Below, piece by piece: positions 620 to 59,051 of a DNA stretch of 64,000 nt. The stretch's first letter is position 1. Each line of letters starts with the position of its first letter. Below the pieces are notes generated by a model that was not told the origin of the DNA, did not search any database, and saw only the letters and a list, made by a program, of their open reading frames with translations. The position numbers and the translations under genes are program-made. This stretch comes from Pirellulales bacterium (lineage in GTDB: Bacteria > Planctomycetota > Planctomycetia > Pirellulales > DATAWG01), in assembly GCA_038210495.1 (NCBI GenBank), contig JBBQWR010000007.1, positions 1-64,000 of the forward strand, written 5' to 3'.

Positions 620-673
620 CGGAACGTGGCGAGTGGCGAGTGAGGCTTCAGACTTGGACCACGCCTAAACGCC

Positions 674-704
<31 letters not shown>

Positions 705-777
705 GTGCAGCCTGTGAGCGCACATGAACAATCACTGCTGGGTAAGCCAGCAGTGGCACCCGATCCAGCAAGCAGCC

Positions 778-4391: not shown

Positions 4392-5189
4392 ATGCGCTTC
4401 GATGTCCTCACGTTGTTCCCCGGTATGTTCCCGGGCTACTTGGGGCAAAGCCTGCTGAAGCTGGCGATCGAGCGGGGCTTGGTGGATGTGCGACTGCACA
4501 ACATCCGCGACTGGGCCAAAGGACGACATAAAGTAATGGACGATCGTCCCTACGGGGGCGGACCCGGCATGATCCTTAAGGTCGAGCCGGTGGTCGAATG
4601 CGTCGAAGCGATTCGGGCGGAAAGTGGCGATGAGTCAACGGGTGGCGATGAGTCAACGGGTGGCGATGTCTCAACGGGTGGCGATGATTCACCAGGTGGC
4701 GGCGGCTCAATCGGCCCGGGCCATCTGATCGTGCTCACGCCTCAGGGGCGCCGGCTGACGCAGCCGATCGTCGAAGAGTTAGCCGGGCACAAGCGATTGG
4801 TTTTGCTCTGTGGTCGGTACGAGGGATTTGACGATCGGGTGCGGCAAATTCTCGAGCCCGATGAATTGTCGATCGGCGATTTTATTTTGGGAGGTGGCGA
4901 GGTCGCGGCGATGGTGGTCATCGACGCGGTGATTCGCCTCCTGCCGGGAGTGTTGGGAGACGAGCAAAGCGCGGCGTGCGATTCGTTTTCCGGCGTCGAT
5001 CGATTATTGGAACACGCGCAATATACACGCCCTCGCGAGTACCGCGGCCTGACCGTGCCCGAGGTGCTGCTGGGGGGCAACCACGAGGAGATCGCCCGCT
5101 GGCGACAAGAGCAGAGCGAGCAAAAAACAGCCGCTCGAAGAGCAAACGACGAATGTCTAGTCAATGACGAATGCTCAAATGACGAATGA
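4392..5189 (+). CDS. trmD: tRNA (guanine37-N1)-methyltransferase TrmD with an internal Gly/Asp/Ser/Thr repeat insertion
   Basis: MRFDVLTLFPGMF...YGGGPGM...LLCGRYEGFDDR are TrmD hallmarks. The insertion GDESTGGDESTGGDVSTGGDDSPGGGG is encoded by a 21-bp tandem repeat at ~4624-4704. The stop codon lies inside a hairpin arm at 5181-5193. Confidence 0.9.
   Translation: MRFDVLTLFPGMFPGYLGQSLLKLAIERGLVDVRLHNIRDWAKGRHKVMDDRPYGGGPGMILKVEPVVECVEAIRAESGDESTGGDESTGGDVSTGGDDSPGGGGSIGPGHLIVLTPQGRRLTQPIVEELAGHKRLVLLCGRYEGFDDRVRQILEPDELSIGDFILGGGEVAAMVVIDAVIRLLPGVLGDEQSAACDSFSGVDRLLEHAQYTRPREYRGLTVPEVLLGGNHEEIARWRQEQSEQKTAARRANDECLVNDECSNDE
4624..4704 (+). repeat. 21-bp tandem repeat (~3.8 copies) inside trmD, encoding (GDxSTGG)n
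   Basis: ggcgatgagtcaacgggtggc repeated with point variants; read directly from the sequence. Confidence 0.8.
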
Positions 5190-5300
5190 CGAACACTCGC
5201 AACTTGAGGCCTTCGTCATTCGTGTTTCGCCTTTAGACATTGATTAGACCTTCGTTATTAGACATTACATATTTGACTTAGACATTGCGAATACGAACGA
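5141..5300. repeat. Intergenic block of TGACGAA(TG) heptamer-like repeats and TTAGACAT repeats, including hairpin 5181-5224
   Basis: gacgaatgtctagtcaatgacgaatgctcaaatgacgaatgacgaac... then cttcgtcattcgtg; ttagacat occurs 3 times. A closely related block lies at 35071-35285. Confidence 0.6.
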
Positions 5301-17250: not shown

Positions 17251-18708
17251 ATGCAGCGCTTCATTTTAATTTTTGTCGCGTCCGGGTTGATTACATTCGG
17301 TGCTTCTCGATCTCGGGCCGACGACGATCGAGAACCCGCTGAACCTATCGCCCAGAACGAACCGGCGCTGAACGAACCGGCGCTGAACGAACCGGCTCAA
17401 AACGAATCGGCTCAGCTCGACGCCGGTCCCGAGGCGGCCAGCCACTGCGTTACGATCCTAGGCGATGCTCTACAGTCGCTCGCTCTCGAAAAATGGATCG
17501 CGGCCATTGCGGATTGCAAATCCATCGTCGAGCAGTTGGACTTGCAATCAGTTCGAGCCCAATTGAACGATCGCAGCGCCAAAGCCGTTGGCGTCTGGCG
17601 TCTGGCGAGCGCCGAGCGGGCAAAGCTCGTCGTCAAACCAAACTTGCCCATCGCGCCGGAGCTTGCCGCTCTGCGCGACAAAATCCATAAGGCAGTGGCC
17701 AACTACGAGCAGCGGCCATTGAACGCCGCGCAGCAATCTCCTTGGGAGGTCATGCACCGCATCGTGGCCTACGGGATCGGAACCGAAATTCGCCGCGATG
17801 GCCCGACCGGTGACAAAGTCAACGCCATCGGCTGGCTGCTGTGGGGCAATCGCGCGGCGAGCGAGCCGCTGATGGTCGTGTCCGCGGGCCGCCCCCTCTG
17901 CCGCGTCGGACCAGGGCTACAAGGTCATCCGGGGCAATTCCTCGGTATGCTCGCGCAGTCGCAAGTCAGCATTCTCACTCCATTCCAACTCGACGGCCAC
18001 TCGTTCACCGTCGCCGATCTCGTGGAGCAAGAAAAGGCCGACTGCAGCACGCACATCGAATTGACCTTCAAACTGATCGCCCTCTCGTACTATTTGCCGA
18101 GCAACGAAACCTGGATCGCCAAAAATGGCGAGCGATGGTCGATTTCGCGGCTGGTGCAGGAAGAAATTCAACAGCCGCTGCGGACCGGCGCCTGCGGCGG
18201 AACTCATCGGCTGTTTAGCCTAAGCAATGCCTACCGTTATCGCGCAAAGCAAGGCTTACCGATCGACGGTGAATTCAAGCGGGCCGAGAAGTACGTCCGC
18301 GACTACCATCGTTACACGCTGGGCGCGCTGCAAAACCCGGACGGCAGCTTCAGCACCGAATGGTTCACCAAGCCGGCGAACGCGGACGACCCCGCGCGGA
18401 AGATTCAAACGACCGGCCACATGATGGAATGGCTCGCGCAGAGCCTGCCGGACTCCGAGCTGCGCGATCCGCGCGCGATCAAGACCATCGATTTTCTGGC
18501 GACGCAACTGTCGCAGGACCCGGTGAAGGATTGGAGCGTTGGCCCGCTCGGCCACGCCCTGCATGCCCTGATTATTTACGATCAGCGAGCGTTCGGCGAA
18601 GCCAATCCAGCGATCGCATCTTCCGTCGCCAAGGCGAATCGACCGGCCAACATGGCAACGCGGCCCCTGTATCCGCCGGTCCCGCGGAGCGGCGTCGACC
18701 AATGGTAG
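17251..18708 (+). CDS. Secreted hypothetical protein with an N-terminal NEPAL pentapeptide repeat
   Basis: Signal peptide MQRFILIFVASGLITFGASRSRA. A 15-bp tandem repeat at 17355-17415 encodes NEPALNEPALNEPAQNESAQ. The remainder has no confident domain assignment. Confidence 0.5.
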   Translation: MQRFILIFVASGLITFGASRSRADDDREPAEPIAQNEPALNEPALNEPAQNESAQLDAGPEAASHCVTILGDALQSLALEKWIAAIADCKSIVEQLDLQSVRAQLNDRSAKAVGVWRLASAERAKLVVKPNLPIAPELAALRDKIHKAVANYEQRPLNAAQQSPWEVMHRIVAYGIGTEIRRDGPTGDKVNAIGWLLWGNRAASEPLMVVSAGRPLCRVGPGLQGHPGQFLGMLAQSQVSILTPFQLDGHSFTVADLVEQEKADCSTHIELTFKLIALSYYLPSNETWIAKNGERWSISRLVQEEIQQPLRTGACGGTHRLFSLSNAYRYRAKQGLPIDGEFKRAEKYVRDYHRYTLGALQNPDGSFSTEWFTKPANADDPARKIQTTGHMMEWLAQSLPDSELRDPRAIKTIDFLATQLSQDPVKDWSVGPLGHALHALIIYDQRAFGEANPAIASSVAKANRPANMATRPLYPPVPRSGVDQW

Positions 18709-18720
18709 TCGGCCGGCGCC

Positions 18721-19737
18721 TCATTCGACTATCCATGTATCGCCGGAGTTGAGCAGTCCGGTCAAATCGCCGGCGCCTCGTTTCGCTCGCGCATCGTCGA
18801 TCTGGGCGTTGACCATCTGGTCGTACATCGGTCGTTCGACATCGCGGAAAACGCCGATCGGCTCGGGAAATTGCGGATACCGCATGCGGCTCAAAAAATA
18901 CGCGAGGCTCGGCTCGGTCAGCTTCTCGTCGTGAATCAACAGATCGTCCTCGGTGATTCCCTTGCCGAGGGTTACGACCTCCAGTTGCATTCCCGTCTGT
19001 CGGATTCCCTTGTCGCGATTCTTGCCGAAGACCAGCGGCTTGCCGTGCTCTAGCTCGATCGTTTGATCCATCTTGGTCAGCCGATCGGTCGCCCAATCGA
19101 ACTCGCCGTCGTTGAACACGTTACAGTTTTGATAAACCTCGACGAACGATGTGCCGCGATGCTCGGCGGCCCGCTTGAGGATCATCGACAAATGTTTGAT
19201 ATTCACGTCGATCGAGCGAGCGACGAACGTGGCTTCGCAGCCGATTGCGACCGATAGCGGGTGGATCGGGTTGTCGACCGAGCCGGCCGGCGTGCTCTTG
19301 GTCACTTTGCCCAGCGGCGAAGTCGGCGAGTATTGCCCCTTGGTCAGGCCGTAGATCCGATTGTTGAACAACACGATCTTGATGTCCAAATTCCGGCGAA
19401 TCGCGTGCATCAGATGGTTGCCGCCGATTGATAGCCCGTCGCCATCGCCTGTGATGACCCAGACCATCAGTTCGGGCCGAGTCACCTTGAGCCCCGTCGC
19501 GACCGCCGGCGCCCGGCCGTGAATCGAATGAATGCCGTAAGTATTCATGTAGTAGGGAAACCGGCTGGAGCAACCGATGCCCGAGACGAACACCATTCTC
19601 TCGGGCGGAACGCCGAGCGACGGCAGCACTTTTTTCATCTGGGCCAAAATCGAATAATCCCCGCAACCGGGGCACCAGCGAATGTCTTGGTCGCTGGCAA
19701 AGTCTTGGGGCGTGAGAACGGGAAGTGTCGTGGACAT
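18721..19737 (-). CDS. korB: 2-oxoglutarate:ferredoxin oxidoreductase subunit beta (TPP-binding)
   Basis: MSTTLPVLTPQDF... start; CPGCGDYSIL and GIGCSSRFPYYM...GDGDGLSIGGNH are TPP-binding motifs of OFOR beta subunits. The ATG at 19737 is preceded by a heptamer array rather than a Shine-Dalgarno sequence. Confidence 0.85.
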   Translation of the reverse strand: MSTTLPVLTPQDFASDQDIRWCPGCGDYSILAQMKKVLPSLGVPPERMVFVSGIGCSSRFPYYMNTYGIHSIHGRAPAVATGLKVTRPELMVWVITGDGDGLSIGGNHLMHAIRRNLDIKIVLFNNRIYGLTKGQYSPTSPLGKVTKSTPAGSVDNPIHPLSVAIGCEATFVARSIDVNIKHLSMILKRAAEHRGTSFVEVYQNCNVFNDGEFDWATDRLTKMDQTIELEHGKPLVFGKNRDKGIRQTGMQLEVVTLGKGITEDDLLIHDEKLTEPSLAYFLSRMRYPQFPEPIGVFRDVERPMYDQMVNAQIDDARAKRGAGDLTGLLNSGDTWIVE

Positions 19738-19746
19738 GGGGAAGTA

Positions 19747-19776
19747 GTCGGGAGTAGGGAGACGGGAGTCGGGAGT
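19747..19776. repeat. Heptamer array GTCGGGA/GTAGGGA/GACGGGA (4 units), 10 nt 5' of the korB start
   Basis: gtcgggagtagggagacgggagtcgggagt; the same units recur at 23430-23452 and 23527-23554. Confidence 0.6.
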
Positions 19777-19807
19777 TACATAGCTGCGGCATTCTGCCGC
19801 GTAGTCG

Positions 19808-19835
19808 AGCGGGGGGGCGTAAGCCCCCTGTCCCA
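19808..19835. repeat. REP-like element GAGCGGGGGGGCGTAAGCCCCCTGTCCC
   Basis: Variant of the 6953 family, located between korA and korB. Confidence 0.55.
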
Positions 19836-19857
19836 TCGGTCAACACTAATCAGACAC

Positions 19858-21774
19858 TTAATTCTTCAACAACGACTCAATCGCCGCAGCTACGTCGGCC
19901 ACGGCGAATGGCTTGCCCTGAACTTTGTTCAGCCCATGGGCGTCAACCAAATACGTCGCGCGAATCAACATTCTTAGCTGCCCGAGATTCAATTCCGGAA
20001 TCAGCACTTTTTCGTATTTGCTAAGCAACTCGCCGAGATTCGCCGGAAACGGATTGAGGTAGCGCAAGTGGGCATGGGCGACCGCGGCGCCCTCGGCTCG
20101 CGCTTCGCGGACCGCCGTCTCGCAGGCGCCGTACGTGCCACCCCAACTTAAGACCAACAGCCGGCCGCTCGCTGGCCCTTCGACCTTCTGAGGCGGCAAC
20201 TCGCGCGCAACCCCCGCGATCTTATCGGCCCGCAGATGCACCATATGCTCGTGGTTGGCCGGCTCGTAATTCACGCTCCCGGTGATGTCCTGTTTCTCCA
20301 GCCCACCGATTCGGTGCATCAGGCCCGGCGTTCCCGGCAGCGCCCAGGGCCGGGCCAACCGCCCGTCGCGAGTATAGGGCATGAACGCATCGCCATCGAT
20401 CGCGGCCGGCGGATGCGGCGACTCGATCGGCGGCAGGGCTTTCACATCCGGAATGCGCCACGGCTCGGACCCGTTCGCTATATAACCGTCGCTCAGGACC
20501 ATCACCGGCGTCATATATCGCACCGCGATCTGCCACGCCTCTTGCACGATTTCAAAACAATCCGCGGGTCCTTGAGCGGCCAGCACGGGCAGCGGGCATT
20601 CGCCGTTGCGTCCAAAAATTGCCTGTAGCAGGTCGGCCTGTTCGGTCTTCGTCGGCAGTCCGGTGCTTGGCCCGCCGCGCTGCACGTTGACGATAATCAT
20701 GGGCAGTTCGGTCATCACCGCCAAGCCGATTCCCTCCTGCTTGAGCGCGATCCCTGGGCCGCTCGATGTCGTGACGGCCATCGCTCCGCCGAACGACGCG
20801 CCAACGCAAGCCGTGATCGCCGCGATCTCGTCCTCCGCCTGAAATGTCCGCACGCCGAAATTCTTGTACCGCGTGAGCTCGTGCAATATGTCGCTGGCGG
20901 GCGTGATCGGATAGGAGCCAAAAAACAGCTCGCATTGGCTCCGCTCGGCCGCGACCATCAGGCCCCAAGCCAGCGCTTGATTGCCCGTGATGTTGCGGTA
21001 TGTGCCCGGCGGAAGCTTCGCCTTGGCGACGGCATAGTGATCGCCGAAGGCCTCGGTCGTCTCGCCATAGTTGTAACCGGCATAGAGAGCCCGGCGATTG
21101 GCCTCGGCCACCTGCTGCGACTTGGCGAATTTGTCGTCGATGTATCGCAGTGTCGGATCGAGCGGGCGATCGTAGAGCCAAAACACCAACCCCATCGCGA
21201 AAAAATTGCGGCAACGGTCGCTTTCTTTCATCCCCAGTCCAAGCTCACCGACGGCCAGTCGCGTGATCTTCGTCATCTCGACCGGGAACAGCCGATAACC
21301 GTCGAGCGAGCCATCGTCGAGCGGATTGGTCTGGTAGCCGGCCTGCTTGAGGTCCTTCTCGTCGAACGCGTCGCCGTTGACGATCAGGATGCCGCCTTTC
21401 ACCAAGTCGCCGAGATTCGTCACCAACGCGGCCGGGTTCATGGCGACCAGCGCGTCGACTTGGTCGCCGGGCGTGAAGATTTCTTGACTGGCGAAGTGGA
21501 TCTGAAAGCCGCTCACGCCGGCCTTCGTGCCACGCGGCGCGCGAATCTCGGCCGGGAAATCGGGAAACGTCGCGACATCGTTGCCGACCAGGGCCGAGGT
21601 GTTGGTCAACTGCGTGCCGGCCAACTGCATTCCGTCCCCCGAGTCGCCGCAAAACCGAACCGTGGCGTCGGTGATGTGCGTGACCGGCTTGATCGATCGA
21701 GGAGGCGCCGTGCGGAGCGATTCCTTCAGCTGGGGCGACTGAAGGCTATCGACAGTCGTCGAGGATTGGATCAT
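19858..21774 (-). CDS. korA: 2-oxoglutarate:ferredoxin oxidoreductase subunit alpha (fused alpha/gamma type)
   Basis: Start chosen at MIQSSTTVDS (ATG 21774). Pyruvate flavodoxin/ferredoxin oxidoreductase core domains. Paired with the downstream korB on the same strand. Confidence 0.8.
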   Translation of the reverse strand: MIQSSTTVDSLQSPQLKESLRTAPPRSIKPVTHITDATVRFCGDSGDGMQLAGTQLTNTSALVGNDVATFPDFPAEIRAPRGTKAGVSGFQIHFASQEIFTPGDQVDALVAMNPAALVTNLGDLVKGGILIVNGDAFDEKDLKQAGYQTNPLDDGSLDGYRLFPVEMTKITRLAVGELGLGMKESDRCRNFFAMGLVFWLYDRPLDPTLRYIDDKFAKSQQVAEANRRALYAGYNYGETTEAFGDHYAVAKAKLPPGTYRNITGNQALAWGLMVAAERSQCELFFGSYPITPASDILHELTRYKNFGVRTFQAEDEIAAITACVGASFGGAMAVTTSSGPGIALKQEGIGLAVMTELPMIIVNVQRGGPSTGLPTKTEQADLLQAIFGRNGECPLPVLAAQGPADCFEIVQEAWQIAVRYMTPVMVLSDGYIANGSEPWRIPDVKALPPIESPHPPAAIDGDAFMPYTRDGRLARPWALPGTPGLMHRIGGLEKQDITGSVNYEPANHEHMVHLRADKIAGVARELPPQKVEGPASGRLLVLSWGGTYGACETAVREARAEGAAVAHAHLRYLNPFPANLGELLSKYEKVLIPELNLGQLRMLIRATYLVDAHGLNKVQGKPFAVADVAAAIESLLKN

Positions 21775-22251
21775 GGATCGAACATCCCGATGGGCAACGT
21801 GCGTTGGAAATCCGCGAACATCTTCGGCGAGCGCCGGGCGACACGCGGTGAACCGACAAGGCAGCGGCTGGTGCGGCAAACAGATTGCGCCGGCGGCCGC
21901 TCGGACGAGAACTCCGCGGCAGCTTGGATGGCCAAGTCGACTCATTGGGAAAATGTCGACCGACAGCGCTTCCGCCCATGACGTCTCCCGAAGAGACACA
22001 AGCTTTGGTGAGCTAAATTGCGGGTTCGGAGCGCCAATTTTGCGGCATCTGGCGAACCGGCATCGCTATTATAAGCGAGTCATCAAGCACGACGCCACAA
22101 TTTTCCATGCTTCGGCGGTTAGTTCCTGCTCGAATCCCGGTTTCATCGTCAGCCTACTTCCGCCTATACTTTTACGGCGCATCTGAAGGAGGCCTCGCGC
22201 CCCTTCGCTTGCATGATCGCTAACGTTCCATAATCTTATTGCGCCCTCAAA

Positions 22252-22282
22252 TAGTGGACAAAAGTATATGTCCCGCTATAAT
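22252..22282 (+). promoter_or_regulatory. Sigma-70-like promoter candidate: TGGACA, 16-nt spacer, TATAAT
   Basis: tggacaaaagtatatgtcccgctataat lies in an AT-richer intergenic stretch ~50 nt upstream of a small ORF with a strong Shine-Dalgarno sequence. Confidence 0.3.
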
Positions 22283-22332
22283 CCTGGTATTGGCCGATCT
22301 GAGAATCGCCCTTTCAACCCAGGAGGTGGACG

Positions 22333-22548
22333 ATGGTTTCGCTCACGGATGCCGGCGGATGGAATGTTTTTGAGGCGCGGATGCCACTTCGAGAAGCGCG
22401 AGCGATCGGACTCGTCTTGCCCGCCGTGCTAGCACGGTACAATATCGTTTTCCCGACGCTGGCCGAAGCAGGGCTCGCGCCGACGGATGGCCGGGACTGG
22501 ACCAAACGGATGCCCCGGAGCGTCGCAACTGATTCTGTCGTCCAATAA
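22333..22548 (+). CDS. Small hypothetical protein (71 aa)
   Basis: The ATG at 22333 is preceded by AGGAGG at a 6-nt spacing, one of the few canonical Shine-Dalgarno sequences in the window. No recognised domain. Confidence 0.3.
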   Translation: MVSLTDAGGWNVFEARMPLREARAIGLVLPAVLARYNIVFPTLAEAGLAPTDGRDWTKRMPRSVATDSVVQ

Positions 22549-22623
22549 CCGGGGCTTCGGCGAAGCGCCTCCAGCCTTGGCCACCCTTCAATTGAAACTT
22601 GGCGGATCACTAGCGCCGCCTGC

Positions 22624-23409
22624 TCACTGCCATTTCGGTTCGCGTTTTTCCAGAAAGGCGGCCAAACCTTCGGCGGCCGCTTCGGTGGTTCGGGCCGTGG
22701 CGCTGATCGCGGCCCCGGCGGTGAGCATCGTCGGCAACTGCTCGCCGAGCGTTTCGTTGAGCATGCGTTTGGTCATCAGCAAGGCCTCGGGGGCACAAGC
22801 GGCACAGTAGCCCGCCAGTTCCGTCGCGCGGGGCCAAAGATGATTGCCGGGCACCACCTCGTGAAAGATGCCCCACTGGTAGGCCTGGCCTGCGGACGCG
22901 ATCTGTGCGGTCAGCAATAGATAGGCCGCCCGGCCGGCGCCGATCCGAAAAGTCAGCAGCGGCGCGACCATGCCGGCCACCAACCCGCGGCGCGGTTCCG
23001 GCAGCCCAAATGTCGCGTCGTCGCTGGCGATCACGATGTCGCAGGCCAGCGCCAGCCCGGCCCCTCCGGCCAGCGCCGCGCCACCGACGGCAGCGATCAG
23101 CGGTTTGGGAAACTGGAGCATTCGCTCGAGCAAATCTCGATAGGCGACCGAGTCTTCATGCCAACGGGCCTGCGCGTCCGTTTGCATACTAGCGGCCTGC
23201 ATTTCCGCCAAATCCATCCCGGCGCAGAAGGCTGGCCCCGATCCAGTAAGAACCACCGCCCGAACGCGCCGCTCGCCGTGCAAATCGCCGAGAGCCTGAT
23301 CGAGCTCGGCCAGCATGGCCCTCGACAGGGCGTTCCGCTTCTCCGGGCGATTCAAGATGATCGTACCCGTATGCTCGTGAACGTGAATCTTCACCAGCGG
23401 CTTAGTCAT
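22624..23409 (-). CDS. Enoyl-CoA hydratase/isomerase (crotonase) family protein
   Basis: MTKPLVKIHVHEHTGTIILNRPEKRNAL...VLTGSGPAFCAGMDL...GGAALAGGAGLALACDIVIASDDATFGLPE is the classic crotonase fold signature. Confidence 0.8.
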   Translation of the reverse strand: MTKPLVKIHVHEHTGTIILNRPEKRNALSRAMLAELDQALGDLHGERRVRAVVLTGSGPAFCAGMDLAEMQAASMQTDAQARWHEDSVAYRDLLERMLQFPKPLIAAVGGAALAGGAGLALACDIVIASDDATFGLPEPRRGLVAGMVAPLLTFRIGAGRAAYLLLTAQIASAGQAYQWGIFHEVVPGNHLWPRATELAGYCAACAPEALLMTKRMLNETLGEQLPTMLTAGAAISATARTTEAAAEGLAAFLEKREPKWQ

Positions 23410-23429
23410 GGTTTTGCCTCTGGCAAAAA

Positions 23430-23554
23430 GTCGGGAGTCGGGAGACGGGAGTTGAAGCAGCCTCTGCGGCGCCAAGATTGGAGACAGCATAACTTGCGGC
23501 GTCGGGCCGGCGAAGCCGGCTTGTCTCACTCCCGACTCCCGACTCCCGTCTCCC
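23430..23554. repeat. Inverted pair of GTCGGGA-type heptamer arrays (23430-23452 and 23527-23554) forming a ~120-nt hairpin between two minus-strand genes
   Basis: gtcgggagtcgggagacgggagt ... actcccgactcccgactcccgtctcccc. The left arm is ~21 nt 5' of the enoyl-CoA hydratase ATG. The right arm overlaps the last codons of the 23526 gene. Confidence 0.6.
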
Positions 23555-23891
23555 CACTATTTCCGTCCGGCGCGGGTAGCTTCAGGTCCAAAATGGCCGT
23601 GCCGAGCAGCTTGCCTTGCGTGTCGATGCGTAGCGACTGACTGGCGCCGCCGCCGAGTGCGTTGTAGAGCACGAAATTCAGCGCCCAAATTTTCGGCAGC
23701 TCGAATCGCTCGACTCGATCGCCGCCGAGCCCGCAAAAGTATTCGGCGACTCTCTCGGATGTCAGCTCGCGCTGCAGGTAGGCAAACCCGGCCGGCGTGT
23801 ACGCTACGACGCCGATGTTCGCGTGGTTGCCCTTGTCGCCGCTGCGAGCATGAGCGATTTGGCCAAGGGTAATGGTAGCAGTATTGAACAT
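23526..23891 (-). CDS. Hypothetical protein, possibly DUF4387-like (AtuA-associated small protein family)
   Basis: Start chosen at MFNTATITL (ATG 23891). ARSGDKGNHANIGVVA ... FELPKIWALNFVLYNALGGGASQSLRIDTQGKLLGTAILDLKLP recalls DUF4387 proteins. Recall-based and weak. Confidence 0.4.
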   Translation of the reverse strand: MFNTATITLGQIAHARSGDKGNHANIGVVAYTPAGFAYLQRELTSERVAEYFCGLGGDRVERFELPKIWALNFVLYNALGGGASQSLRIDTQGKLLGTAILDLKLPAPDGNSGETGVGSRE

Positions 23892-23907
23892 GGAGAAAAT
23901 TTGTAGA

Positions 23908-23926
23908 TCAGGCACTCTGTGCCTGA
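23908..23926. repeat. GTCAGGCA-type palindrome TCAGGCACTCTGTGCCTGA (same family as 11423/11493)
   Basis: Perfect 7-bp stem with a 5-nt loop. A half-site variant lies at 23977-23997. Confidence 0.5.
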
Positions 23927-24004
23927 CGAGGGGAGCAACCTATATGTCTGCCATCAGGTCGATTTAACCCACGCATGTCAGTCACACAGTGCCTGACTTA
24001 CGCC

Positions 24005-25006
24005 TCACCGCCAACGGCCTTCGGTCGGGCTGCCCCACATATCGGAATTATGGCCTAACAATTGTTTCAACGGCTCAGTCACCGCATTGAGTTCCACGAT
24101 CGCGTCGCCATCCAAAATCAACGCACCCGCAGCGGCATTCTTGGCGACCTGCTCCGGGCTATGCGCTCCAGCGATCACCGCCGTGACTCCCGGTTGCTGC
24201 AAGCACCACGCCAGGGCCACCGCCGCCATCGGCTGTTCGATTCTACCCGCAATCGCACGGATGCGATCGATCGCCGCGAATGTTTCGCTCTCTGCGCCGG
24301 CGAAACCATGTCGCGAGCGGGGCCGCGTCGGGGCAAAGTGCCGGCTCCGTGTGCGACCCTCGGGTACTTCGTCGGCGGTGCGGAATTTTCCGGTGAGCAA
24401 GCCTTGGCAGAGCGGCGAGTAGCACAGCACGCCGATCTCGTGGCGCCGGCACAGTTCCAACTCGGAGAACTCGATACTGCGATACAGCAGATTGAAAGGC
24501 AGCTGATTCGATTCACAGCGCCCCGCCGCGAGCAGATCGCTCAAATCGAGCGGGCCATAATTGCTCACGCCGAAGACGCGGACCTTCCCGGCATCCGCGA
24601 GCCGGTCCATCTGACGTAGCACGTCGTCGACCGGCACGGCATGATTGGGCCAGTGAATTTGATATAGATCGACATAGTCGGTATTCAAGCGGCGCAGGCT
24701 GGCCTCGCACGCCGCCGCGACACCGCCACCGGCCAGATGGTCGGGATTGATCTTCGTGGCGACGATGTATTGCTCGCGCCGCCCCGCCAGCGCTTTACCG
24801 AGCAGCTCTTCCGATTGGCCGGCGCCGTAGGCCTCGGCCGTGTCGAAAAAGTTGATTCCCGCGTCGATCGCGGCTTCAATGGTTCGCAGGCAGTCCGCTT
24901 CTGTTTGGCCGCCCCAATTGATGTCGTCCTGCAAGATCATCTGCCAGCAGCCGAAGGCAATGCGGGAGACGCTGAGCGGACTGCGGCCGAGTGGAGCAAG
25001 TAGCAT
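24005..25006 (-). CDS. Aldo/keto reductase family oxidoreductase
   Basis: AFGCWQM...GINFFDTAEAYG...YVDLYQIHWPN...VSNY are hallmark AKR motifs. Confidence 0.85.
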   Translation of the reverse strand: MLLAPLGRSPLSVSRIAFGCWQMILQDDINWGGQTEADCLRTIEAAIDAGINFFDTAEAYGAGQSEELLGKALAGRREQYIVATKINPDHLAGGGVAAACEASLRRLNTDYVDLYQIHWPNHAVPVDDVLRQMDRLADAGKVRVFGVSNYGPLDLSDLLAAGRCESNQLPFNLLYRSIEFSELELCRRHEIGVLCYSPLCQGLLTGKFRTADEVPEGRTRSRHFAPTRPRSRHGFAGAESETFAAIDRIRAIAGRIEQPMAAVALAWCLQQPGVTAVIAGAHSPEQVAKNAAAGALILDGDAIVELNAVTEPLKQLLGHNSDMWGSPTEGRWR

Positions 25007-25007
25007 C

Positions 25008-25029
25008 GTGGCGGGTGGCGGGTGGCGAG
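25008..25029. repeat. Heptamer array GTGGCGG x2 + GTGGCGA, directly abutting the AKR start codon (sense strand TCGCCACCCGCCACCCGCCAC-G-ATG)
   Basis: Same heptamer family as the array at 58988-59051. Confidence 0.6.
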
Positions 25030-25248
25030 ATTAAAAATTAGCCGCGTCTCTCACGACGCGCTCAACCGGATCGCAACATTCTGCGCGACGGTTACCGGCT
25101 TGTTACAATAATCGCAAACTTTTCACCGTGTCAAAGCGTCTAATATAGCAGCCGGGGATTATTGCGCGCCCGATCGCGGCGGGCGACCCGGCCAATGAAC
25201 TGGTAAATCAGCGCGGTCGCGGCTCATTTCACAATTTCGGAGCTAAAG

Positions 25249-28200
25249 ATGAAACGCATGTTCTCGGTAGCGGCGGCCGTTCTTTCGATCACCGTCGGCC
25301 TCGGCGTGACGTTGCGATTGGTCGGCGCAGACGCGAAAGAGGCTCCGGCTCCGCCCGAGACAAAAAAGCCGGCCGCGGCGGCCGACGGCGGCCTGTTCGC
25401 CGTGCCGCATGTGCCGACGAAAATCAGCGAACTGCTGGCGGATCACAAATACGCCGACGCGATTGCGGCCATCGATGCCGCTCGCAAAGACGCCAAAGCG
25501 AAAGATGCCCCCTGGGACTATCTGGCCTATCTCAAGGGCCGGGCCCTGCATCTGGATGGCCAGTACGACGCGGCCGTCAAGCAGTTCACCGCGATGGAAA
25601 AGGAATTTCCAGGCAGCCCCTGGGCTCGCCGCGCTCGATTCGGCAAAGCCGTGTCGCTGGCTCGCAAGGGTGATTTTCGCGCGGCCGAGCTCATCTACCG
25701 CACGGAGGTCGAGTATCTGCTCTCGTCGGCCCGCAAGCAGGAGATCGCCGACCTGTATCTGGAATTCGCCGACGCCTATTTCAAGCCGAAGGACGAAATC
25801 CAGCACAAGCCGGATTACCAAAAAGCGCTTGAGTTCTATCTGAAGGCCTTGGAGGTCGGCCCGCAGAACGATCGCCGGGCCGAGATCGAACTGCAGACGG
25901 CCCGCAGCTATCAATTGCTCAATCAACTGCCCGAGGCGGCTAAGCGATTTAGCCAGTTCATCAAGGACCATCCCGGCCTGCCGGCCGTGATCGAGGCCCG
26001 ATTCCGCTTGGGCGAGGTTCAGCTAGCGCAGAGCCAACAGCAAGAGGCTCGCCGCACTTGGCAAGATCTGCTTGCCGCGCATGCCGATTCGAAGTCCGAG
26101 CGAATTCCCGAGGCCGCATATCGCTTGGCGTTTACTTACAACCTACCGAATCCCCAGACCGATGAAGAACTCAGCCTCGGCATAAGCACGCTCGAATCGT
26201 TTATTAAAAATTATCCGGATCACAAGCTCGCGTCGCAGGCCCATCTGCTCATCGCCAATAGCTACATCGCCCGCGGCCGGTACGAAGACGCGGTCAAGTC
26301 GTTGATTCGGTTCCTGGCCGACAAGCGTTACGCCGATCGCGAGGAAGTGGCCGACGCCCGGAATCTGCTCGGCCGTTCGTACCAACTCCAGCGAAAGTTC
26401 ACCGCCGCGCTCGAGGCTTGGCGCGATTATCTGACCAAGCATCCCTCGCATCACGCTTGGAGCGACGTGCAGCGCGAGATCGTCAACACGGAATACCTGA
26501 TGGCCGACGACAAGGCCCAGGCGAAGCAATACGACGAAGCCCGCAAGCTGTGGAACGATTTTCTCGCCAAATATCCGCTCGATCCCCGCGATCCGCAGAT
26601 TCTTTATCTGTTCGGCTGGATGAACTACCAGCAGGAAAGATTTCCCGAGGCGAACAGCGACTGGCGTCGGCTGGCGTCAAAATATCCGGGCACTGAGCCG
26701 GCCCAGCGCGGCCAACTCATGATCGCCGCGACGCTCGAAGGCAAGCTCGGCAAGCTGGAAGAGGCGCTCCAGGAATACAAAAAGGTCCAGCCGGGCAATT
26801 GCCAAAATCTGGCCCAAATGGCCATCAACCGGCTCACGGCCAAGAGCATGGCGATCGTCACCGAGCGGGTATTTCGCAGCGACGAGACTCCCAAGATTAA
26901 GCTCACCAGCCGCAACATCGAGTCGGTCACCGTCCGGGCCTACAAGGTCGATCTTGAAACCTATTTCCGCAAGATGCACGTCGTCCAAGGGGTCGAGGGA
27001 CTCGACATCGCCCTGATCGATCCGGACAAAACGTTCGAATTCAAGATCCCCAAATACAATGAGTATCAGCAGGTCGAGAACGAGATCGAGCTACCGCTGT
27101 TCAAAGACATAGCCAAGGATGCGGCCAACGCCGACGCCAAAGACGCCGGCAAGCTGACGCCCTCTGGCGCCTGGGCCGTCACGGTGAGCAGCAAGACGCT
27201 CGAAGCCACAACGCTAGTATTGCAAAGTGACCTGGACCTGATCGTCAAAAGCTCGCGCGATGAGCTGTTCGTGTTCGCCGAAAACATGCGGACCGGAAAA
27301 CCCTGGCCGGGCGTAAAACTCTTACTCTCCAATGGCCAGCAGGTGTTTGGCGAAGTCGCCTGCGGCGCCGATGGCGTGCTCAAGCAGTCGTTCAAGGAGC
27401 TCAAGGGAGCCGGCGACGTGCGGGTCTTCGCGCTGGCCGACGGGGGCGTGGCGTCGAATGTCGTTAGTCTACAGGGGGTTGGCGTCGCTCAAGGGCTCGT
27501 CGACAAGGGTTACATCTACACCGATCGGCCCGCCTATCGAGCCGGGCAGATTGTGCATGTTCGCGGCATTCTGCGGCGGGCGGTGGACGACAACTACACG
27601 GTCGAAAAGGGGAAGAAGGAGACCGTCGAGGTCTACGATCCGCGCAGCCGGCTGATCTGGCAGGAAGAGACCAAGCTGTCGGACGTCGGGAGTCTGCACA
27701 TGTATTTTACGCTCCCGGCGACCAGTCCCGTGGGGCCGTATCGCGTGGTGGTCCACGATGACGAGGGGCACAGCCACGCGGGCGGGTTCACGGTGCACGA
27801 GTATCAGATCGACCCGGTGCGGCTGTCGGTCGATATCGATCGCCACGTGTTCTATCGGGGGGAAGAGATCGAAGGGACGATTCGGGCCGCGTTCTACTAC
27901 GGGGCGCCGCTCGCCGACCGCGAAGTGACCTATAAGCTGGCCGACGGCCGCGTGAATAGCGCCAAGACCGACGACAAGGGAGAGGTGCATTTCAAGCTGC
28001 CGACCCGCGACTTCCGCGAGACGCAGACGCTACCGCTGGTCGTCACGCTGGCCGAGCGGAATCTGACGACCGTGCAGAATTTCTTCCTGGCGACGCAAGG
28101 GTTCGCGATCAGCATGAGCACAGTCCGGCCGGTGTATGTGGCCGGCGAAACGTTCGAGGTGACGCTCAAGGCGATGGACGCGGAGAACAAGCCACTCGCT

Positions 28201-31200
28201 CAAAAACTCACGCTCAATGTGCTTGAGCGGACGGTCGTAGATGGCAAGGTCGGCGAGAAGCAGGTCGATACGTTTGAAGTGGCGACCGACGCCAAGGACG
28301 GAACGGCGCGTAAGACGCTCAAGCTCGAAAAGGGCGCCGAATATATCTTGCGAGCCGAAGGCATCGATCGGTTCAAGAACCCGGTGGTCGGCCAGTATCG
28401 GATCAAGATTTCCGATGAGAACGACAGCGTGCGGCTGCGCATCTTGGCCGATCGGCACACGTACAAAGTCGGTGACGCGGCCGACGTGCAACTGCACTGG
28501 CGCGAGAAGCCGGCCCTGGCGCTGGTCACGTTCCAAGGCGCGCGAGTGCTCGATTATCGGCTCGTGCAACTGGAGACCGGGGCGAACAAGCTGGCGATTC
28601 CCATGTCGGCCAAGCTCGCGCCGAATTTTGATCTCACGGTCGCGGTCATGACCGACGCCGGGCGACTGGAAAAGGGGCTAGGGGCAGGTGATGGGACTAG
28701 GGAGAAGAAGGCAGGCGGAAACGATGCAGTTAAGTTACCGGAGAGTCCGCTTAAGGTGGCGAAGGCGCCGGCGAAGCGATTTCATGAGGCTTCGAGTCCG
28801 TTCAGCGTCGAGCGGCAACTTACGCTGAAGCTTGAAACCAAGCGGAAGGAGGGGGCGAAGGGCGCCATTCGGCCGGGCGAAGAGGTGGAACTGGTCATCG
28901 TCGCCACCGATCCGCAAGGCAAGCCGGTCGCGGCCGAGGTCAGCCTTGGGATGGTCGAACAGGCGCTCTTGAATATGTTCCCGCCGAACGTGCCGGCGAT
29001 CGATGAATTTTTCAAAGGCGTGCCCCGGCAATCGGCGCTTCACACTTCGACCAGTGTCGTATTTGGCTATTTCCCCGCAACGCATCCGATCGATCGGCAT
29101 TTGCTTTCGGAGGTCCAGCGGCAAGAGATTGCGAAGGAGGAGGCGGAGAGCACGGCAGTGCGCACGCGCCTATTACTGCAGGCGCAACAACAGGCGGCGA
29201 ACCAATCCGATGCAACTCCCGCGCTCGTCATTCAAGAGGAAGCAGCAGAACAGTTGCTGGGCTCGGAACAGCCGAGAGCACAAGCCGGCGCTCTCTTTAC
29301 GGACGGAAGCACCGGGATTCAAGCCGGCGGGATCGCAGGCTCTGGCGGCCTTGGCAATGTTGACTTAGCTTTAGACGGGGTTCACGCCTATGGATGGACT
29401 GGCGACCAACATAACTCTGGCGAGGCGGCCGCCAATGAAGATCGAACTACCGCGGCCGTCGCTTACACGGATCAGGCGGCGATTCCCTTTCCGGTTAAGC
29501 CCGGAATTCAATATCCAACTCACGCTCAGGGGCGGACGTTGACGCGGGATCGCATGCGTTATAGTCAACTTCAAGTCGATCCAAGCGGCGGCGTCGGAGG
29601 CGGGGCTTCTGCCGGTGGATGGGCAGCAAATTCAAATAGGCCAGCAGCTTCGACGCCAATTGGCCGGACGCCTCAACTTGGGGCCGTCCCGCATATGAAT
29701 CGACTGTTCGACATGCCCCCGCAGCTTGGCCGAACGAGTGGCGAATTGGAATATGCGTTGAATGGCGGCGATTTGAGCGACAACTACGCCGTCGTTGCTC
29801 AAGACGGTAGCCAGCGGAATTGGTCGTTCGGCGCCAACTGGGCGCTTGGAGACGGCGGTCGCAAGGAATTGGCCGCCAAACGTGTCGCGGAATTGCAAAC
29901 GGCGATCGCCAATAAGGCGCTCGTCACGCCGCAGCGCGGGTTGGTCGAAACGGCTTATTGGAATCCGGCGATTGTCACCGACGACAAAGGCCGGGCGAGC
30001 GTCACGATCTCGATGCCCGATCAATCGACGGCCTGGAAGCTATCGGCCAAGGGAATCACGGCCGATACGCTGGCCGGCGAAGGGGAATTGGATCTGGTAG
30101 TGAAAAAGGACCTGTTCGGCGAATTGAAACTGCCGACGGCGTTCACCGACGGCGACGACGCCCAGATTCTCGCGACGATCCACAACGGCCTGTTGGACAA
30201 GGGTCAGATCGAGGTCACGCTCAAGACGACGATGGGCGGCAAGTCGACCGAGGAGAAAAAGACGATCGACGTCACGGCCACAGGGTTGTCCGAGTTGACG
30301 TTCCCGCTCGCCGTTCGCCGCCCGACCGCGGATGACAAGGCCGAGAAGAAGGTCGACGCCAAGAAAGAGGACAACCCGGCCGACGACAGCCAGGTGACGA
30401 TAGAGTTATCGGTCTCCTCGGGCGCCGAGCGCGACGTGGTTCGCCGCGTCGTGCCGATTCATCCTTACGGCATGTCGGTCTACGCGACGGCCGGCGGCGC
30501 CGCGTCCTCCGACACCACCGTGTGGGTCGAGGCGCCCAAGGACATGCCGCTGGCGGCCCCAAGCCTCCAGATTCTCGTCGGGCCGACGATTCAGCAGAGC
30601 CTCTTGGACGTGCTGTTTGGAACCGCGCCAACCTGTGAGATTGATGTGCTCCGGTCTGCCTCGGCGCTGGATTCGCCGGCCAGCGATCTGATGGCCGCGC
30701 TGGCTCTGCAAAAGCTGATCAATACGACCCGCGACGCTGGCAACCCGCAAGCCCGGTTGCTCGACGATCGGGTCCGCTCGGCAATCAGCCTGCTTGTCTC
30801 ATCGCAACTGGACGATGGCAGTTGGAGTTGGGGCGGCCAAGGCCTTCAAGCACAGGCCGCTCAAGGTCATCGCCTGGGGACGGCCCGCGTGATTTGGGCG
30901 CTTTCGCTGGCCAAATCGGCCGGCTACAAACTGCCCGGCGAGCAGTTCGAGAAGGGGCTGACGTTCCTGCAAAGCCAAATCGCGACCACTGCCGAGACCG
31001 ACTACGAAACCAAGGCCGTGCTCTTGCACGCCCTGGCCGCGGCGGGGCGCGGTGACTTCACGCTGGCCAATCGGCTGTATCGCAATCGCCCGGCGCTCAC
31101 GACCGCCGCGCTCGTGTATCTCTCGCTGGCGCTAGCGGAGATGGACCACCAGCCGATGGCCGAGGATCTTTTGAAACTGCTCGATCAGCGGAATTTGGAT

Positions 31201-34184: not shown

Positions 34185-35072
34185 TCACGCACCCGCTTTG
34201 CGAAAGTTCAGCAGCGGCCACAGTTGGCCTTCCCGCCGCGCGTAGAGAATCGACACTAACTCGCCTTGGGCGTCGATGGCCGCAAGTTGTGCGCTGTCGT
34301 TCGTTCCGAAAGGCGATCCGAACGGCAAACCGTGGATGACGAGTTCGACCTCCACATCACTTAGCGCGAGCGTCGGCAGCGAGTCGAGCGCCGCGCGGGG
34401 CGAAAGGATGCGACTCGGCAATGTCTCGGCGTTTAGCGTCCGCGGATCGCAGGCGTCCGCCACATGGAATGGCCCGATCGCCGTGCGCTGCAGAGCCGAC
34501 ATCACTGCCGCGGTTCCCAGCGACTCGGCAAGGTCGCGACCGATCGACCGCACGTACGTGCCCGAACTGCATGCGATCTGGAGCGTCAGTTCCGGATAAT
34601 CGTAGCTCTCGATCCATAGCTTATGCACCGTGATGGCCCGCGACTGCAATTCGACGTCGCGGCCCTTTCTCGCCAGCTCGTACGCTCGACGGCCGGCGAC
34701 TTTGATCGCCGAAAAGATCGGTGGCCGCTGCTGAATCTCGCCGATCATGGCCGCGGCGGCGTGCTGTATCTCGTCGAGCGTTGGGATCGGCGGATCGATC
34801 AGCTCGGTGATCTCGCGCTCGATGTCCTCCGACTCGCTCGAACGTCCGAGCAAGAATACGCCGCGATAGCGCTTCGGCATCCGCTGCACATATTCGACCA
34901 ATCGCGTCGCCGGGCCAAGGCATGCAATCAGGACTCCCGAGGCGATCGGATCGAGGGTGCCAGCATGTCCGATCTTCGCCGGCTTGACAAGATGTTTGAT
35001 CCGCCCGAGCACGGCTGCCGACGACAACCCGACGGGCTTATTGAGATTCAGAAGGCCGAACATGGGGGGCAA
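34185..35072 (-). CDS. truB: tRNA pseudouridine(55) synthase TruB
   Basis: FGLLNLNKPVGLSSAAVLGRIKHL...HAGTLDPIASGVLIACLG is the TruB catalytic Asp motif region. Confidence 0.9.
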   Translation of the reverse strand: MPPMFGLLNLNKPVGLSSAAVLGRIKHLVKPAKIGHAGTLDPIASGVLIACLGPATRLVEYVQRMPKRYRGVFLLGRSSESEDIEREITELIDPPIPTLDEIQHAAAAMIGEIQQRPPIFSAIKVAGRRAYELARKGRDVELQSRAITVHKLWIESYDYPELTLQIACSSGTYVRSIGRDLAESLGTAAVMSALQRTAIGPFHVADACDPRTLNAETLPSRILSPRAALDSLPTLALSDVEVELVIHGLPFGSPFGTNDSAQLAAIDAQGELVSILYARREGQLWPLLNFRKAGA

Positions 35073-35285
35073 ATGACTAATGACGAATGTCTAATCAATG
35101 ACGAATGACGAAGCTCGAATGACGAAGGACTGAGATCACGTTTTTGCAGTAATGCTTAGGTCGACTAATTTTCTCGACATCACAAACGTGCTCGAAGATT
35201 CGACATCAGACCTTCGTCATTCGTCAATTAAGCATTAGTCATTGATTAGACATTGGGTATTTCGTCATTCGTCATTCCTCATCAA
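35071..35285. repeat. Intergenic TGACGAA/TTCGTCA heptamer and TTAGACAT repeat block, related to 5141-5300
   Basis: aatgacgaatgtctaatcaatgacgaatgacgaag ... cttcgtcattcgtcaattaagcattagtcattgattagacattg ... ttcgtcattcgtcattcc; it shares a 30-nt near-identical segment with the 5141-5300 block. Confidence 0.6.
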
Positions 35286-56452: not shown

Positions 56453-56500
56453 AGCGTGAAGCGTGAAGCGTGAAGCGTGGGGCGTGGGGCGTGGGGCGTG
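56440..56500. repeat. Heptanucleotide tandem array: GTGAAGC x5 then GTGGGGC x3; contains the argH stop codon and lies ~50 nt upstream of the next gene
   Basis: gcgtgaagcgtgaagcgtgaagcgtgaagcgtgaagcgtggggcgtggggcgtggggcgtg, read directly from the sequence. Confidence 0.85.
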
Positions 56501-56550
56501 AAAAAGGCGGGTGTTCGGCGAAGACGGCTGGCGCAAGAGGGGATGCAATT

Positions 56551-58987: not shown

Positions 58988-59051
58988 CTCGCCACCCGCC
59001 ACCCGCCACCCGCCACTCGCCACTCGCCACTCGCCACTCGCCACTCGCCAC
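58988..59051. repeat. Heptanucleotide tandem array: GCCACCC x3 then GCCACTC x5 (+ GCCACCT); ends 10 nt before the sigma-54 activator start codon
   Basis: ctcgccacccgccacccgccacccgccactcgccactcgccactcgccactcgccactcgccacct. Its reverse complement reads (GTGGCGA)5(GTGGCGG)3, giving the same 5+3 organisation as the array at 56440-56500. Confidence 0.85.

Follow-up and report, generated by a model that had tools for sequence, protein, structure and literature searches.

A 64-kb stretch of the genome of an uncultured Pirellulales bacterium (Planctomycetota; contig JBBQWR010000007.1, hereafter the window) carries several short tandem arrays of 7-nt units at the ends of genes. A first-pass annotation had pointed to C-rich arrays immediately 5' of the start codons of three unrelated genes, korB and the genes encoding an enoyl-CoA hydratase and an aldo/keto reductase (AKR), and had read them as a recurring leader feature that might serve Shine-Dalgarno (SD)-independent initiation or recognition by an RNA-binding protein (RBP), or might reflect promoter-embedded repeats. 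All three arrays exist, although for two of them the distance to the start codon had to be corrected. Upstream of korB (18721-19737, minus strand) lies a lone (ACTCCCG)x4.4 array with TCTCCCT variants (19746-19776, minus strand), which has no partner arm and is located 8 nt, not 10 nt, 5' of the korB ATG (19737) and 81 nt 3' of the korA stop codon (19858-19860). On the plus strand the array reads AGTCGGG and contains four GGG tracts (G3N4 x4). The korB start is backed by an N-terminus (MST.LPVL) that is conserved among relatives, and the structure of the korB leader is not significant (z -1.2).

At the gene for the methylglutaconyl-CoA-type enoyl-CoA hydratase (22624-23409, minus strand), whose ATG at 23409 is backed by an identical 261-aa database protein and by homologs of 259-261 aa, the array proved to be one half of an inverted pair, the other half of which, 75 nt away, had been overlooked. 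In transcript order on the minus strand, the G-arm (GGGAGTC)x4.4 (23528-23558), which is the reverse complement of the C-arm, is followed by a unique 75-nt spacer or loop (23453-23527) without similarity to any other locus compared, by the C-arm (ACTCCCG)x3.4 (23429-23452) and, after 19 nt instead of the approximately 21 nt given earlier, by the hydratase ATG. Translated, the G-arm forms the final 10 codons (…GETGVGSRE and the stop codon at 23526-23528) of an AtuA-ferredoxin-like open reading frame (ORF). The pair is predicted to fold into a stem of ~27 bp (minimum free energy of the region -79.2 kcal/mol, z -4.3), in which variant units that are not mirrored between the arms leave A.A and U.U mismatches. 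The RNA 3' of the C-arm continues with UUUUU and a small hairpin that includes AGAGG; a weak SD-like AGAGG is present 7 nt before the hydratase ATG.

The third array, (CCGCCAC)x2.9 (25008-25027, minus strand; GTGGCGG on the plus strand), abuts the AKR gene (24005-25006, minus strand) as described before; it is situated between divergent genes, a single nucleotide (1 nt) separating it from the ATG (25006). The AKR Pfam domain begins at residue 15. A sigma-70-like site, TTGACA-18-TATTGT, is present upstream of the array (25134-25105, minus strand), with a terminator-like hairpin and T-run (25060-25043) in between. In a consensus promoter scan of the window no promoter overlapped an array, and the AKR site was the only one near an array. 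Because this promoter lies upstream of the array, the latter belongs to the 5' untranslated region (UTR), which speaks against the idea of promoter-embedded repeats. The AKR 5' region (25043-25134) may be an attenuator-like leader.

Further arrays that had been mentioned at 56440 and 58988 and as TGACGAA/TTCGTCA blocks are likewise real and begin at 56438, 58988, 5163, 35072 and 35261. In the trmD-rplS region, an (AATGACG)x4.3 array (5163-5193, plus strand) contains the trmD stop codon (5187-5189) and encodes the TrmD tail (…NDECLVNDECSNDE and stop). Together with its inverted partner ttcgtcattcgtg at ~5211-5223 it spans 5163-5223 and forms part of a hairpin (z -4.0), ~95 nt 5' of rplS (5318). 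Between larA and truB (minus strand), a degenerate TTCGTCA-type array of 8.9 copies (35072-35130, sense strand) makes up the pyrimidine-rich arm of a long palindrome (z -6.7), its partner being a purine-rich arm (…AATGACGAATGACGAA, sense strand) at 35261-35282; the layout here is larA stop (35282-35284), purine-rich arm, 130-nt spacer, pyrimidine-rich arm, 8 nt and truB ATG (35063). The trmD (5150-5250) and truB (35072-35282) loci are homologous in that they have a composite AATGACG palindrome in common. Apart from this palindrome the spacers of the window are locus-specific, with none conserved for the ACTCCCG, TCGCCAC and AAGCGTG loci.

Two nine-copy arrays and one short array complete the set. 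On the plus strand, (AAGCGTG)x6 followed by (GGGCGTG)x3 (56438-56502) contains the argH stop codon (56450-56452; tail …KREA and stop), and (CCGCCAC)x3 followed by (TCGCCAC)x6 (58988-59051) stops 10 nt short of the start codon (ATG, 59062) of a gene encoding a sigma-54 activator. A (GTGGCGA)x2.4 array, the reverse complement of the TCGCCAC unit, is located at 626-642 (plus strand), 6 nt 3' of the stop codon (…619) of an upstream alpha-2-macroglobulin-like gene. Three ORFs take their last codons and their stop from arrays, namely trmD (5142-5189), the AtuA-ferredoxin-like ORF (23526-23558) and argH (56438-56452), so that the arrays remodel the C-termini of these three proteins.

To detect arrays we used Tandem Repeats Finder and a period scan (match +1, mismatch -3, score ≥10). 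Under this one scoring scheme, the 64-kb window contains 8 arrays of period 7 and 0 of periods 4-6 and 8-12, against a mean of 0.11 and a maximum of 1 period-7 array in 100 second-order Markov simulations of the window. The period-7 arrays are therefore real and statistically strong, far beyond chance. They represent four unit families (GGGAGTC, GTGGCGA/GTGGCGG, AATGACG and AAGCGTG) over 8 loci, with 2.4-9 copies per array, and 3 of the 8 loci are inverted pairs in the order G-arm, unique spacer, C-arm (hairpin z -4.0 to -6.7). No Rfam family overlaps any of the arrays, the sole Rfam match in the window being a group II intron. A short (TGGCGTC)x2.7 array at 17589-17607 (plus strand), inside a 485-507-aa ORF without Pfam match, is the sole period-7 array with a score ≥10 within coding sequence and could be a chance occurrence.

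The positions of the 11 intergenic arrays were compared with a randomisation across all intergenic DNA of the window. Ten of them are within 20 nt of a gene end (null mean 1.7, P < 5e-5), with equal shares for start codons (5/11, null mean 0.85, P ~0.001) and stop codons (5/11, null mean 0.84, P ~0.001), and the placement inside each array's own intergenic interval is also non-random (combined P 1e-5). The gaps between arrays and starts are 8, 19, 1, 8 and 10 nt. The first-pass annotation had expected an enrichment near start codons, and this is what we found; its concept of a recurring leader feature nevertheless captures only part of the pattern, in that a 7-nt family does recur and is enriched at starts but is equally common at stops.

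Array orientation follows the type of gene end. Read on the sense strand, all five stop-proximal arrays (abutting or overlapping the stop) are purine/G-rich and all five start-proximal arrays are pyrimidine/C-rich, as is the rplS-side partner arm ~95 nt from its start. Likewise, the inverted pairs of any unit at all loci compared comprise 46 in G..C order, 6 neutral ones and 2 in C..G order, and the ratio of G..C to C..G pairs is 13:0 between co-directional, 4:0 between convergent and 4:0 between divergent genes. Since a G..C pair reads G..C on both strands, the G-first order is a property of the DNA element. Hairpin stability is equal on both strands at the three paired loci (z -4.3, -6.7 and -4.0), meaning that the G-U test for RNA-level selection revealed no strand asymmetry. 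A further regularity concerns the content of the arrays: none of the 19 arrays located ≤25 nt upstream of a start contains an ATG, a GTG or an SD tetramer on the sense strand, compared with 13 of the 25 arrays just after stops (Fisher P 1e-4). The module consists of a G/purine-rich array that follows or overlaps a stop codon, of its reverse complement close in front of a start codon, or of the two together. In the last case the arms enclose a spacer particular to the locus and, on either strand, fold into a hairpin of 25-70 bp.

Given the proposed link to SD-independent initiation, the SD status of the leaders is of particular interest. Only 12 of the 37 called window genes have a 4-nt SD core at -20 to -4, and the window leaders taken as a whole are rich in C (32%, against 25% G); for Planctomycetes, a low use of SD sequences has been published (PMC5397173). 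For anti-SD pairing we assumed the canonical 16S tail from general knowledge, as the 16S gene lies outside the window, and obtained duplex energies of +0.1 (korB), -0.3 (AKR), -0.4 and -1.6 kcal/mol for the array leaders against a median of -5.1 for the other genes, itself a weak predicted pairing. The near-nil pairing of the array leaders is due to their being G-poor. The reported lack of an SD sequence from the three leaders thus holds for korB and AKR (duplex ~0 kcal/mol) and less so for the hydratase with its weak AGAGG. The C-rich units resemble the anti-SD sequence instead of complementing it, the SD-like strand being that of the G-arm, so that the suggested complementarity to the 16S 3' tail, assumed to be canonical, was not found, and duplex energies near 0 rule out a role of these units in anti-SD pairing. 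In addition, the korB leaders of array-less Pirellulales relatives are also SD-less and A/C-rich, and more distant planctomycetes with korB directly after korA carry GGAGG-type SDs before korB. An SD-less, C-rich leader is consequently not special to arrays; it is the rule in this genome with or without them.

We then asked how far the arrays extend beyond this genome. The best KorB match (83% aa identity) comes from a Pirellulales metagenome-assembled genome, and the hydratase homologs belong to Pirellulales or Planctomycetia. No array was present upstream of korB among 13 planctomycete korB loci (best 83% aa), and the orthologous spacer between the AtuA-ferredoxin-like ORF and the hydratase gene in a 78%-identical relative has the same length (112 nt) without arrays, this comparison being based on two records (L201 and L202) of one ortholog. 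Look-ups with the exact KorB and hydratase proteins yielded no near-identical contig on record, and the next hydratase homolog after the identical protein has 79% identity. As there was no synteny beyond korAB in 80 genome loci, orthologous comparison was limited to korB and the hydratase. The lack of arrays at these orthologous sites indicates that they are evolutionarily young or transient. With regard to density, the window has 1.25 period-7 arrays per 10 kb, compared with 0.24 in 296 kb of planctomycete loci and 0.45 in other phyla. In 1.38 Mb of korB surroundings taken from many phyla, 54 of the 61 arrays of period 7 are intergenic, while periods 5, 6 and 8-11 give only 0-8 intergenic arrays each. 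The phenomenon of heptamer arrays is therefore not lineage-specific. Among the hot spots are an Acidobacteria contig with 15 arrays in 21 kb as well as Chloroflexota, Chitinophaga and Ignavibacteria. In the first of these (Acidobacteria bacterium 13_1_20CM_3_53_8, 1-21005), the 15 arrays, several of them in inverted pairs, occur between almost every gene, and their units include AACTGAA/CAGTTTT, 6/7 identical to the TAACTGA unit of Beggiatoaceae and cyanobacteria.

A metagenome scan with ACTCCCGNCTCCCGNCTCCCG (GGGAGTC/ACTCCCG) matched at least 120 contigs, whose GC content ranges from 33 to 73% among the matches listed, to which the following counts refer as well. Oriented with their C-rich strand on top, the arrays lie close to the gene on their right and not to the one on their left. 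The G-arm comes first in 16/16 strict inverted pairs and in 27/27 pairs under a looser test. Lone arrays ≤30 nt from a gene end fit the rule of G-rich after stops and C-rich before starts in 17 cases and deviate from it in 4. Taken by gene end, G-rich arrays prevail after stops (31-32 vs 7) and C-rich ones before starts (14-15 vs 2). The copy-number mode of 4 in the 140 metagenome arrays listed is biased by the search, which required at least three units. Some of these contigs carry more elaborate elements. On two metagenome contigs of 72% GC (L174 and L184), GGGAGTC/GACTCCC pairs flank a conserved ~90-130-nt spacer (…ccctcgcgccgccgttcgcgcccgctcgaatgccgaggagggcaacggccgg…) that is repeated several times per contig and looks like a MITE (miniature inverted-repeat transposable element) with heptamer-array termini. 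On two others (L098 and L121), the spacer between G- and C-arms holds a second palindromic motif (cattccgagcgtagcgaggaatc / catcccgagcgaagcgagggacc), which resembles a dispersed REP-like repeat nested in the heptamer pair.

These features are in line with heptamer repeats described in other bacteria, even though a search of the literature revealed no earlier account of such arrays in Planctomycetes. The (GGGANTN)n repeats that Rehm et al. (2015; PMC4692102) described from Xanthomonas (GGGAATC) and Nostoc (GGGGAYT) are ~90% intergenic, usually comprise four units, fold into G-quadruplexes in vitro, form at least 70 convergent inverted pairs per genome, lie on average 28 nt from one ORF and 160 nt from the other, and have a function that 'remains to be elucidated'. 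This type includes the arrays at korB and the hydratase gene, with GGGAGTC, GGGAGAC and GGGAGTA on the G-rich strand; the other window families do not match it. The arrays studied here are also strongly intergenic (54/61) and near a neighbouring ORF (10/11 within 20 nt), frequently form convergent inverted pairs (23429/23528 in the window; 46 G..C vs 2 in the wider set), have neighbours of all functional classes and are not conserved in detail between related species. The GGGAGTC-family arrays have 4.4, 3.4 and 4.4 copies, close to the four typical of GGGANTN, the mode of the wider set being biased as mentioned. Unlike in Xanthomonas and Nostoc, the host belongs to the Pirellulales, and units without G3 tracts (GTGGCGA, AATGACG and AAGCGTG) obey the same placement rules.

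Knowledge of tandem heptamers in bacteria goes back to 1990, when, as cited in PMC4692102, Mazel et al. described the STRR (short tandemly repeated repetitive) heptanucleotides of heterocystous cyanobacteria. According to the account in PMC4679880, Mrazek, Guo and Shah (2007) found heptanucleotides to be the most abundant long simple sequence repeats (SSRs) in most genomes and proposed polymerase slippage tuned to a 7-nt contact. As far as these accounts go, the window shares with both the presence of several heptamer unit families per genome, their dispersed and non-coding location and the great excess of heptamers over other units of 5-11 nt; it differs from the STRR case, as cited there, in phylum (the host is not a heterocystous cyanobacterium), in units and in its shorter arrays (2.4-9 copies).

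Taken together, the C-rich arrays are probably the start-proximal or lone arms of an STRR-like heptamer repeat family without gene-specific leader function, and we regard them as a planctomycete (Pirellulales) example of known intergenic heptamer repeats. Such arrays may grow and shrink by slipped-strand replication favouring 7-nt units, in keeping with Mrazek's polymerase-contact idea, and, since 7 is not a multiple of 3, would survive only outside reading frames. The second arm would most simply be copied by template switching across a nascent hairpin. Selection might then leave only configurations compatible with expression, that is, start-proximal arrays without ATG/GTG or GGAG-like motifs and no C-rich RNA lying exposed downstream of stops. 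Avoiding spurious starts cannot be the sole force, since convergent genes, too, have pairs in G..C order between them; a disadvantage of C-rich RNA behind stop codons (Rho loading) or some bias of the mechanism may play a part. The arrays would not be SD substitutes; rather, a G-poor, unstructured array could be compatible with a normal leader of an SD-poor lineage. Paired modules would place a long hairpin between cistrons, and this hairpin may incidentally be cut by RNase III, stabilise the RNA or terminate transcription, the last being conceivable for the hydratase pair, where U5 follows.

Several points weigh against this reading. Slippage and selection are not an obvious cause of gene-end hugging with a unique spacer in the middle, and they leave unaccounted for both the recurrence of only a few units per genome and the occurrence of GGGAGTC in contigs of 33-73% GC among the matches listed. 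All three give a hint of some mechanism of dispersal or of a factor with sequence specificity, and the composite palindrome at two window loci and the conserved spacers in two high-GC contigs look MITE-like. Moreover, the metagenome set was ascertained by at least three units, gene ends outside the window come from a rough in-house gene caller, and the contrast of 0/19 and 13/25 arrays may be biased, as the caller may absorb ATG-containing arrays into ORFs.

The alternative that survives best is that the pairs have been selected as intercistronic RNA hairpins, acting as RNase III sites, 3'-end stabilisers or terminators, or as translational-coupling devices, in which a ribosome reaching the upstream stop would melt the stem and free the downstream start. 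We consider this rather unlikely. The stems are very stable, the upstream ORFs end in or at the G-arm, the downstream start follows 8-19 nt past the C-arm, and U5 comes after the hydratase pair, all of which would suit such a role. There is also a precedent in the 5' UTR of Haemophilus influenzae hmw1A, where (ATCTTTC)n pairs with a G-rich arm, and the resulting long hairpin affects expression and is a target of RNase III cleavage (PMC12721329), so that in both cases a heptamer array near a start pairs with a complementary arm. In hmw1A, however, the order of the arms is reversed, with the pyrimidine-rich repeat on the 5' side and the G-rich region on the 3' side. This is furthermore a single phase-variable adhesin locus with at least 10 repeats and an experimentally shown RNase III dependence. 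More generally, lone arms make up half of the arrays, pairs are found between convergent and between divergent genes as well, stability shows no strand bias, the pairs are not conserved in relatives, and the hydratase pair contains unmirrored variant units.

Alternatively, the modules could be non-autonomous mobile elements (MITE- or REP-like) with heptamer-array termini and a transposase encoded elsewhere, which we deem unlikely. In proteobacteria, REP/BIME elements are palindromes scattered over intergenic DNA close to the 3' ends of genes, where they are often arranged as inverted pairs and form RNA hairpins; each REP is one imperfect palindrome that has a conserved 5' tetranucleotide and is mobilised by a RAYT transposase. 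The gene-end placement of the arrays resembles that of REP/BIME, the same units recur at many loci, the AATGACG palindrome is common to 5150-5250 and 35072-35282, and two metagenome contigs have conserved spacers between the arms. The window elements are, however, tandem heptamers and not REP-like palindromes, their flanks and spacers are unique at the hydratase, korB, AKR, argH and sigma-54-activator loci, and lone arrays vary in copy number. Target-site duplications were not found in the window, nor was a RAYT/Y1 transposase among the 36 proteins scanned from the window (64 kb of the genome). Given the unconserved spacers at the ACTCCCG, TCGCCAC and AAGCGTG loci, we did not adopt a simple MITE model here.

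The leader function put forward in the first-pass annotation would mean that pyrimidine-rich arrays recruit ribosomes or an RBP (S1, a Csp with a heptamer-sized site, or a CsrA-like protein) for SD-independent initiation. A parallel exists in the TAACTGA repeats, which occur in marine Beggiatoaceae and in some Cyanobacteria and Bacteroidetes (MacGregor 2015; PMC4679880); in the SD-poor Beggiatoaceae they form arrays a few nt upstream of starts, for which binding of S1, Csp or CsrA was proposed as a hypothesis. Similar to those, the window arrays are start-proximal, of fixed orientation and at the place of the ribosome-binding site, and they precede unrelated genes in an SD-poor genome. Their enrichment ≤20 nt from starts, their strict sense-strand orientation, the unstructured korB leader and the fact that array leaders are the least SD-like in the window would also fit. 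Yet TAACTGA is one unit, inverted in 1/170 sets and mostly 5' of genes, whereas the window has several units, inverted pairs at 3/8 loci and 5/11 arrays abutting stop codons. Four unrelated unit families in one genome, the presence of arrays in opposite sense at stops, and an association with unrelated housekeeping genes count against such a function. As stops are hugged as often as starts, array-less leaders are equally SD-less and C-rich, the orthologous korB and hydratase leaders have no arrays and there is no complementarity to the anti-SD sequence, a dedicated role in SD-independent initiation is not supported, and we judge recruitment by the arrays to be distinctly unlikely. The preferred reading as a repeat family, the selection of hairpins and a contribution to initiation or RBP binding are not fully exclusive.

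For the GGGAGTC family, G-quadruplex or i-motif elements in DNA or RNA, as considered by Rehm et al., would be a further explanation. The korB array (plus strand) and the array at 23528-23558 (minus strand) each have four tracts of three or more Gs with 4-nt loops, the unit fits GGGANTN (PMC4692102), and four is the copy-number mode of the 140 metagenome arrays listed, a mode biased by the requirement for at least three units. The hydratase-proximal array, in turn, has just three G tracts, and GTGGCGA, AATGACG and AAGCGTG lack G3 tracts while obeying the same positional rules. The latter rules out quadruplexes as a general explanation; for the GGGAGTC family itself they appear very doubtful. 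That copy number switches the downstream gene, as a heptamer SSR in the 5' UTR does for hmw1A in H. influenzae (PMC12721329) and as the nine-copy arrays at 56438 and 58988, which should be unstable, might allow, is scarcely credible, because half of the arrays are 3' of genes and the neighbours (korB, hydratase, AKR, trmD, rplS, truB, larA, argH and sigma-54 activator) include core metabolism and translation genes (korB, trmD, truB and argH) and show no surface or host-interaction association. A telomerase-like or double-strand-break-addition origin of the G..C pairs was ruled out, as the arrays lie outside a unique spacer and are not adjacent.

A bolder idea, to which we attach little probability, is that paired modules are a coupling or shunt device for an SD-poor lineage, or that the pyrimidine-rich heptamer arrays are tandem sites for an OB-fold protein (S1 or Csp) that licenses SD-independent initiation. 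In the former case, the base of the stem would set the upstream stop beside the downstream start, and translation of the first gene would open the second or hand ribosomes over to it. If true, either version would provide a function for the long-unexplained heptamer repeats and would explain the nearly universal G-arm-first order and the gene-end hugging.

Returning to the repeat-family reading, its most useful by-product is the generality of three rules: arrays hug gene ends, the G-rich arm comes first, and neither start codons nor SD motifs occur in the arms next to starts. Seen for one unit in Xanthomonas and Nostoc, these rules extend to many units and phyla, and such regularity argues for a common mechanism or constraint. 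For genome annotation this implies that arrays extend the 3' ends of ORFs, as in trmD, argH and the AtuA-like ORF, and that they should not be read as gene-specific regulatory leaders.

The window holds several other noteworthy features. Within trmD, an in-frame 18-nt tandem repeat (GTGGCGATGAGTCAACGG x4.3; 4624-4710, plus strand), which includes a GTGGCGA heptamer, adds ~30 residues (ESGDESTGGDESTGGDVSTGGDDSPGGGGS) between positions ~57 and 58 of the Pfam tRNA_m1G_MT profile. A long imperfect palindrome with ~30-nt arms (cgggtgccactgctggctt … aagccagcagtggcacccg; 673-762, plus strand), unrelated to the heptamers, sits between the array at 626 and the start of a 3-beta-HSD/epimerase gene. The group II intron (42395-44218, minus strand) matches Rfam group-II-D1D4-4 at 44078-44218 with 110.7 bits and encodes a reverse transcriptase/maturase (ORF 42395-43675; RVT_1 and GIIM). 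Finally, a giant ORF of 2887 aa (25249-33912, plus strand) combines TPR repeats, alpha-2-macroglobulin MG2/bMG3/A2M domains and a YfiO-like region, and a second A2M-like gene fragment is present at the start of the window.

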